DNA of 64,000 nucleotides from Escherichia coli (GTDB lineage: Bacteria > Pseudomonadota > Gammaproteobacteria > Enterobacterales > Enterobacteriaceae): assembly GCF_048403405.1 (NCBI RefSeq), contig NZ_CP183129.1. The stretch is one strand, 5' to 3'. The position numbers were made by a program. Shown here piece by piece: positions 45,001 to 48,000 of this stretch; position 1 is the first letter of the stretch; each line of letters starts with the position of its first letter.

Positions 45001-48000
45001 CAGAAGACAAACTCCTGCCGTTAATTACGCGTTACTTAGGATCAATCAAACACTCTGATTCGCCATTAGCCGCAGGTAAACCATTAACTCGCGCGACGGA
45101 CAACGCATCGGTTGCTGTAAAAGAACAAAATGAACCTGTGGCACAGGTTTCACAGTGGAAGCGTTATGATTCCCGGACACCTGTAAATCTGGAGACGCGT
45201 ATGGCGCTCGATGCTTTTAACGTCGCACTGGCAAAAGATCTACGCGTTAATATTCGTGAACAGGCATCTGGAGCATACAGCGTTTCTTCTCGCCTCTCGG
45301 TTGATCCTCAGGCCAAAGATATCAGTCATTTGCTGGCTTTTACTTGTCAACCGGAACGACATGATGAACTGTTAACGTTAGCGAATGAAGTGATGGTTAA
45401 ACGTCTGGCTAAAGGGATCAGTGAGCAAGAACTGAACGAATACCAGCAAAACGTTCAGCGCAGCCTCGATATCCAACAGCGTAGCGTTCAACAATTAGCG
45501 AACACCATTGTAAATAGTCTTATTCAATATGACGATCCTGCAGCATGGACTGAGCAGGAGCAATTGTTGAAACAAATGACGGTAGAGAATGTTAACACTA
45601 CCGTTAAACAATATCTTTCTCATCCGGTAAATACTTATACCGGAGTATTATTGCCAAAATAATAACAGCCCCGTCAACACATCGTTGGCGGGGATTTTAT
45701 CAATATTCGCTATTTTTATGTAATAATTTTATAAATGCGTTCAAAATAATAACCAAGTACTAATAGTGATATTTTAAGGTCTGATTTTTACGTGATAATT
45801 CAGGAGGCGTAGAAAGCGCATAAAAATAACAACATAAAACACTTTACCACCACCCAAAAATTCTCTATTGCATTGTTTTTTAATGAAAAAACATTATTCT
45901 CGTAATATTTCACGATAAATAACATTAGGATTTTGTTATTTAAACCCGAGTCCTTTGCACTTGCTTACTTTATCGATAAATCCTACTTTTTTAATGCGAT
46001 CCAATCATTTTAAGGAGTTTAAAATGGATAAGAAGCAAGTAACGGATTTAAGGTCGGGACTACTCGATTCACGTTTTGGTGCGAAGTCTATTTCCACTAT
46101 CGCAGAATCAAAACGTTTTCCGCTGCACGAAATGCGCGACGATGTCGCATTTCAGATTATCAATGACGAATTATATCTTGATGGCAACGCTCGTCAGAAC
46201 CTGGCCACTTTCTGCCAGACCTGGGACGACGAAAATGTCCACAAGTTGATGGATTTATCCATTAACAAAAACTGGATCGACAAAGAAGAATATCCGCAAT
46301 CTGCAGCCATCGACCTGCGTTGCGTAAACATGGTTGCCGATCTGTGGCATGCGCCTGCGCCGAAAAATGGTCAGGCCGTTGGCACCAACACCATTGGTTC
46401 TTCCGAGGCCTGCATGCTCGGCGGGATGGCGATGAAATGGCGTTGGCGCAAGCGTATGGAAGCTGCAGGCAAACCAACGGATAAACCAAACCTGGTGTGC
46501 GGTCCGGTGCAAATCTGCTGGCATAAATTCGCCCGCTACTGGGATGTGGAGCTGCGTGAGATCCCTATGCGCCCCGGTCAGTTGTTTATGGACCCGAAAC
46601 GCATGATTGAAGCCTGCGACGAAAACACCATCGGCGTGGTGCCGACTTTCGGCGTGACCTACACCGGTAACTATGAGTTCCCGCAACCGCTGCACGATGC
46701 GCTGGATAAATTCCAGGCCGACACCGGTATCGACATCGACATGCACATCGACGCCGCCAGCGGTGGCTTCCTGGCACCGTTCGTCGCCCCGGATATCGTC
46801 TGGGACTTCCGCCTGCCGCGTGTGAAATCGATCAGTGCTTCAGGCCATAAATTCGGTCTGGCTCCGCTGGGCTGCGGCTGGGTTATCTGGCGTGATGAAG
46901 AAGCGCTGCCGCAGGAACTGGTGTTCAACGTTGACTACCTCGGTGGTCAGATTGGTACTTTCGCCATCAACTTCTCCCGCCCGGCGGGTCAGGTAATTGC
47001 ACAGTACTATGAATTCCTGCGCCTTGGTCGTGAAGGCTATACCAAAGTACAGAACGCGTCCTACCAGGTCGCTGCCTATCTGGCGGATGAAATCGCCAAA
47101 CTGGGGCCGTATGAGTTCATCTGTACGGGTCGCCCGGACGAAGGCATTCCGGCGGTTTGCTTCAAACTGAAAGATGGTGAAGATCCGGGATACACCCTCT
47201 ACGACCTCTCTGAACGTCTGCGTCTGCGCGGCTGGCAGGTTCCGGCCTTCACTCTCGGCGGTGAAGCCACCGACATCGTGGTGATGCGCATTATGTGTCG
47301 TCGCGGCTTCGAAATGGACTTTGCTGAACTGTTGCTGGAAGACTACAAAGCCTCCCTGAAATATCTCAGCGACCACCCGAAACTGCAGGGTATTGCCCAG
47401 CAGAACAGCTTTAAACATACCTGATAACGTTTAACGGTAACGGTGTCCCGAAACGCACCCGTTTCGGGACAATTTCCAAAGTCTGTTCACTGGCATTAGC
47501 AACGGAAAATATTGTTCTGAATACGCTTCAGAACAAAACAGGTGCGGTTCCGACAGGAATACCGTTTTAGGGGGATAATATGGCTACATCAGTACAGACA
47601 GGTAAAGCTAAGCAGCTCACATTACTCGGATTCTTTGCCATAACGGCATCGATGGTAATGGCTGTTTATGAATACCCTACCTTCGCAACATCGGGCTTTT
47701 CATTAGTCTTCTTCCTGCTATTAGGCGGGATTTTATGGTTTATTCCCGTGGGACTTTGTGCTGCGGAAATGGCCACCGTCGACGGCTGGGAAGAAGGTGG
47801 TGTCTTCGCCTGGGTATCAAATACTCTGGGGCCGAGGTGGGGATTTGCAGCGATCTCATTTGGCTATCTGCAAATCGCCATTGGTTTTATTCCGATGCTC
47901 TATTTCGTGTTAGGGGCACTCTCCTACATCCTGAAATGGCCAGCGCTGAATGAAGACCCTATTACCAAAACTATTGCAGCACTCATCATTCTTTGGGCGC

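Follow-up and report, generated by a model that had tools for sequence, protein, structure and literature searches.

The locus analysed here has its closest known counterparts in the two Escherichia coli K-12 promoters that carry the GAD box, a 20-bp element whose centre lies 63 bp before the transcription starts of gadA and gadBC (Castanié-Cornet et al., 2010, PMC2887963). The distance from the GAD box to the -35 element is 16 bp, a value stated for gadA, where the segment from -50 to -76 is protected by RcsB and GadE together; the RcsB/GadE heterodimer was shown in vitro on the gadA promoter and not on gadB, and both the GAD box and a further element, the RcsB box, are conserved in gadB (PMC2887963). 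In K-12, ChIP-exo located the GadE peak for gadBC at 1570144-1570175, -62.5 from the transcription start site (TSS), with a modest signal-to-noise ratio of 2.78 (Seo et al., 2015, Supplementary Table 1, PMC4918353), and deletion of gadE changed gadB expression by log2 -6.44, an approximately 86-fold fall. Three adjacent GadX peaks were also reported at gadBC, two of them centred at -184 and -225 (Seo et al., 2015, Supplementary Table 3, PMC4918353); in the coordinates of that study, position 1570097 follows as the TSS from the distance given for the GadE peak (-62.5) and equally from that for the GadX peak at -184. The characterised GadE site is printed there as TTAGGAttTTgTTATTTAAa. Other GadE ChIP-exo sites (hdeD, hdeAB, gadE and yhiM; motif TTARGAWWWWAAATA) share the TTAGGA half-site and usually lie at -54 to -78, upstream of the promoter, but they are degenerate versions, and the full 20-mer occurs only at gadA and gadB.

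We examined the gadB upstream region in a 64-kb stretch of E. coli DNA (the window) and compared it, base by base, with these systems.

Materials and Methods

The K-12 reference was the pqqL-gadB intergenic region of strain MG1655 (NC_000913.3, 1572046-1572406). Conservation was assessed on an alignment of 12 gadB upstream regions, comprising the window, K-12, strain VCSW7, six strains spanning the range of identity and three divergent Escherichia genomes taken from the scan of species genomes described below. Published K-12 positions were mapped onto the window after shifting them by the coordinate offset between K-12 genome versions, 1,975 or 1,976 bp, so that mapped positions carry an uncertainty of about 1 nt.

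Results

The interval 45663-46023, which the initial annotation had read as the gadBC promoter, coincides to the base with the 361 bp that separate pqqL from gadB, with the pqqL stop codon ending at 45662, the gadB ATG at 46024, and gadC next in line as the second gene of the operon (Table 1). K-12 and other annotated E. coli have the same gene order, yddA-yddB-pqqL-gadB-gadC-digH-dosC, and the lengths of the flanking ORFs also match those of K-12. The first gene of the operon starts with MDKKQV, the mark of GadB (GadA begins MDQKLL), and its product differs from the K-12 protein by a single residue, E12G, as does GadC by A473G. Of 5,426 complete E. coli genomes, 5,404 contain the 361-bp region, and as many contain the 124-bp core promoter, at an identity of at least 95% in 5,401 of 5,406 records.

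Table 1. Features of the gadBC locus and its surroundings, in window coordinates; variable columns refer to the alignment of 12 Escherichia sequences.
Feature	Position	Strand	Variable columns	Size, placement and basis
ydeP	31583-33862			mapped from strain 4621 annotation
safA	34110-34307			mapped from strain 4621 annotation
ydeO	34382-35143			mapped from strain 4621 annotation
yddB	40450-42822			790 aa
pqqL	42867-45662			931 aa; ORF ends directly before the intergenic gap
Predicted pqqL intrinsic terminator	45669-45693	+		10-bp stem hairpin with 7 G-C pairs, then ATTTTATCAA; terminator scan
Upstream region	45694-45924		145/235	
Distal upstream regulatory region	~45709-45833			equivalent of three adjacent K-12 GadX ChIP-exo peaks, mapped through K-12 alignment
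GadX/GadW consensus match	45777-45796	+		AGGTCTGATTTTTACGTGAT, 1 mismatch to consensus AKGKCTGWTWTTWWYMYVAK (PMC4918353)
GAD box, GadE/RcsB activator site	45925-45944	+	0/20	TTAGGATTTTGTTATTTAAA, 20 bp; -72 to -53, centre -62.5
Spacer between GAD box and -35	45945-45960	+	11/16	16 bp; length agrees with PMC2887963
-35 to -10	45961-45989		2/30	
Putative -35 hexamer TTGCTT	45961-45966	+		-36 to -31; 16 bp after the box; common to gadA and gadB; invariant in 12 sequences
RcsB (repressor) box	45974-45986	+		CGATAAATCCTAC; boundaries approximate; directly upstream of and overlapping -10; identical to K-12
Putative -10 hexamer TACTTT	45984-45989	+		-13 to -8; 17 bp after -35; C at 45983 directly before it; spacing agrees with the mapped start
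Remainder to ATG	45990-46023		3/34	
Transcription start	~45997, +/- about 1 nt	+		transferred from K-12 via indel-free alignment
Shine-Dalgarno AAGGAG	46012-46017	+		6 nt before ATG; conserved in gadA and gadB
gadB, glutamate decarboxylase B	46024-47424	+		466 aa; ORF list, annotation of matching genomes, K-12 protein comparison
gadC, glutamate:GABA antiporter, second operon gene	47580-49115	+		511 aa
digH	49246-50565			439 aa
dosC	50940-52322			460 aa

The sequence proposed as the canonical GadE/RcsB site is an exact 20-bp GAD box, identical in K-12 gadB, in K-12 gadA and in the published characterised site (PMC4918353), and it is the sole match in the window even when up to 3 mismatches are allowed. 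No match was found in 100 dinucleotide-preserving shuffles of the window, again with 3 mismatches allowed. In a scan for the exact 20-mer across 298 Gb (100,044 species genomes), occurrences upstream of gad genes were confined to Escherichia (E. coli, E. albertii, E. whittamii and Escherichia sp. E1V33), with a distance to the ATG of 99 or 100 nt in every case; the three other exact matches lay within unrelated coding sequence of Lentisphaeria and Bacteroidales metagenome-assembled genomes (MAGs), about as many as chance would give in a database of that size.

The box begins 99 nt before the start codon of gadB, the same distance as in K-12 gadB, as the interval between box and ATG holds no indel relative to K-12, and as in K-12 gadA; in the three other Escherichia named above, 99 or 100 nt separate the two. 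When the K-12 start site is transferred to the window, the box is centred about 63 bp upstream of it and 16 bp before the -35 hexamer, in agreement with the wording "centred 63 bp upstream" (PMC2887963), and the K-12 GadE ChIP-exo peak maps to about 45918-45950, enclosing the box. A displacement of the box from its usual place relative to the start of transcription was looked for in the comparison with K-12 and can be rejected, given the absence of indels and the 99 nt to the ATG.

A scan of the + strand between 45500 and 46200 with the sigma-70 consensus returned no promoter, and the two hexamers were therefore placed by the published geometry and not by score; the absence of a sigma-70-like match fits a weak, activator-dependent promoter. 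The -10 hexamer is preceded by a C, and a C at -13 marks RpoS preference. The RcsB box aligns with that of gadA (GGATAAATCCTAC vs. CGATAAATCCTAC in gadB), the first base being G in gadA and C in gadB, and the gadB form, starting with C and lying by the -10 element, is the one found in the window. Upstream, the hairpin with its T-rich tail behind pqqL is likely the terminator of that gene; it is identical in K-12 and has one variable column in 25 among nine E. coli sequences. Comparison of 45000-47000 with Rfam, run with a permissive threshold, indicated no RNA element, the single match being at chance level (BTnc005, a Bacteroides sRNA, 21 bits vs. a gathering score of 174.8).

The intergenic region had been described as a long AT-rich leader. 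The composition is as described (29.9% G+C vs. 47.8% in the whole window), the term leader is not: with a TSS at about 45997, the leader measures about 27 nt, and because the start lies there and the mapped GadX peaks fall within the AT-rich DNA, the latter is an untranscribed upstream regulatory region.

The alignment with the K-12 gadB upstream region that had been suggested as a check was run, and it joins two regions of 361 bp with the same flanking genes, no indels and 18 substitutions. No substitution touches the GAD box, the -35, the RcsB box, the -10, the leader or the Shine-Dalgarno sequence, and from 45947 to the ATG the window and K-12 do not differ at all. Seventeen of the substitutions are located upstream of the box, at 45700-45909. 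The eighteenth, at 45946 (C here, A in K-12), follows the box by 2 nt and so falls near -51, which corresponds to the edge of the gadA footprint reported by Castanié-Cornet et al. (PMC2887963). As this position is a T in gadA and the spacer as a whole is variable, it falls outside the conserved recognition sequence, and the substitution is probably neutral.

The K-12 gadA promoter shares the identical 20-bp box with the window, and the -35, RcsB box, -10 and Shine-Dalgarno sequence are conserved between them. Similarity, however, starts at the box: the DNA upstream of it and the 16-bp spacer are unrelated, and gadA sits in the acid fitness island without a pqqL neighbour.

Judged against its flanks in the 12 Escherichia sequences, the box is conserved under selection (Table 1), and no stretch before the -35 hexamer is free of variation for longer than its 20 columns, the next longest counting 9. 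Across Escherichia species the GAD box thus stands out as a sharply delimited invariant block. The opposite behaviour is seen further upstream, where 53 of 235 columns vary among nine E. coli strains alone. Over the whole 361 bp, 1,837 of 5,406 E. coli records reach just 90-95% identity, and only 153 of the 5,406 are at least 99% identical to the window, which therefore carries a minority haplotype. These alignments show a far higher rate of change in the distal regulatory half than in the 124-bp core.

The distal half includes the zone onto which the K-12 GadX peaks map, and this zone carries lineage-specific substitutions, most of the 18 differences from K-12 being in it or beside it. The GadX/GadW consensus match lies across the mapped peaks and is identical in K-12; since 0.4 matches would be expected by chance in the window and one was found, this match is weak evidence alone and is used here together with the mapped ChIP-exo peaks. 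A further K-12 GadX peak, at +66, maps inside gadB, at about 46042-46083.

This last peak contains position 46058, 35 nt into gadB, where a G changes codon 12 from GAA to GGA and produces the E12G replacement; the closely related strain 4621 has A. Among 5,405 complete-genome records matching 46024-46100 none is identical, the best all reaching 98.7%, and E12G is consequently private to the window. Residues 3-15 of GadB form an acid-induced triple-helix bundle (PMC4382515), and E12G falls inside it. The G may reflect either true variation or an error in sequencing.

With a 24-kb query, the nearest complete genomes were those of strains 4621 and MS 69-1. Strain VCSW7 has an intergenic region 100% identical to that of the window, but 4621 and MS 69-1 are closer overall; none of them is identical to the window. 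Over 42 kb (22000-64000) strain 4621 differs by 3 SNPs and 1 single-base indel. Outside the gad genes, the differences are a C missing from the window at 50601, in the digH-dosC intergenic region, and one SNP each within ddpX (55417) and ddpF (60576).

The genes gadE, rcsB, gadX and gadW lie outside the window, and in strain 4621 they are intact by annotation. Its acid fitness island is complete, with gadA, gadX, gadW, mdtEF, gadE (175 aa), hdeD, hdeA and hdeB annotated, and rcsD, rcsB and rcsC are annotated as intact. Its gadA has an exact GAD box of its own, at 99 nt, and no other match to the 20-mer with up to 3 mismatches was found in the island. Two further features of strain 4621 were observed in passing, a chu/shu heme-uptake cluster lodged in the acid fitness island, where yhiD and dctR flank it (25558-34512 of the examined stretch), and an ompC that carries an internal stop and is a pseudogene by annotation (14747-15841 of the examined stretch). 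About 11 kb upstream of gadB, the window itself holds ydeP, safA and ydeO (about 31583-35143), identical to those of strain 4621; these genes are members of the EvgA-YdeO-GadE acid-resistance cascade, so that part of the wiring is within the window.

A naturally disrupted gadBC promoter was encountered in the mouse isolate E. coli MSI001 (NZ_CP076645.1). Upstream of its gadB the box and the core promoter sequence are the same, but an IS5-like element of the ISKpn26 family, at 1274-2573 of the examined stretch, is inserted between box and -35 and leaves the box 1,299 nt from the ATG instead of 99. A displacement of this type is absent from the window.

Discussion

On the evidence above, 45663-46023 is very probably the gadBC regulatory region, and its box a GadE/RcsB site that would activate a weak promoter; binding and activation in the present strain would be expected from the experiments carried out in K-12. 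The region, bounded by the pqqL terminator on one side and the start codon of gadB on the other, would drive an operon conferring glutamate-dependent acid resistance. The GadE/RcsB heterodimer would dock on the GAD box, its centre about 62.5 bp before the start and the box 16 bp before a weak -35, and activate a poor promoter (TTGCTT, 17 bp, TACTTT) that is presumably activator-dependent and RpoS-associated. A second RcsB site, set against the -10, may mediate repression under strong Rcs activation, and GadX (and GadW) may act from sites further upstream, in AT-rich DNA of the type silenced by H-NS.

An alternative is that the cis site is intact and the circuit around it rewired or attenuated, either by a distal haplotype that alters the input of GadX, GadW or H-NS, or by a defect in trans (gadE, rcsB, rpoS, evgAS). 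The clustering of 17 of the 18 K-12 differences in the distal half, the rarity of the haplotype and the location of the trans factors beyond the window would be in keeping with such a change. The distal region, however, is equally variable across E. coli in general, and the window and K-12 do not differ at the GadX/GadW consensus match or anywhere in the core promoter; annotation shows gadE, gadX, gadW and rcsBCD intact in the nearest genome, and the ydeO, safA and ydeP of the window are the same as in that genome. We therefore regard a rewired or attenuated circuit as very unlikely. The same observations bear on the statement of the initial annotation that the regulatory wiring of acid resistance is preserved in this strain. 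As far as the cis elements are concerned it stands, while for the strain as a whole it overreaches, as gadE, rcsB, gadX and gadW are outside the window; that the wiring is preserved is likely, though indirectly so, the regulators being annotated as intact in the near-identical genome of strain 4621.

A chance origin of the 20-mer in AT-rich DNA, devoid of specific function, can be rejected with near certainty: the DNA around the box does have 30% G+C, and exact copies did arise by chance in three unrelated MAG coding sequences over 298 Gb, but the shuffled windows contained none, the position is that of the experimentally defined K-12 site, and the box is invariant across Escherichia where its flanks are variable. 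A gadA identity of the locus, as that paralogous promoter itself or as a recombinant of gadA and gadB, can be rejected at least as firmly: the box, core promoter and 99-nt spacing are common to both genes, but pqqL upstream, gadC downstream, the N-terminus and the agreement of spacer and upstream flank with gadB and not gadA are all on the side of gadB.

With the region read as the gadBC promoter, the combination of the minority distal haplotype and the private E12G replacement could, if the base is real, alter the pH-dependent recruitment of GadB to the membrane or the input of GadX; such an effect is improbable. The IS5-disrupted promoter of MSI001 and GadB E12G are small leads on natural variation in acid resistance.

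A gadBC promoter with a GAD box is already known and ordinary, a textbook element in its textbook place, and its presence here has little significance beyond annotation. The comparison provides a base-level promoter map for the window, according to which the main acid-resistance operon of E. coli has retained its cis-regulatory architecture in this strain.
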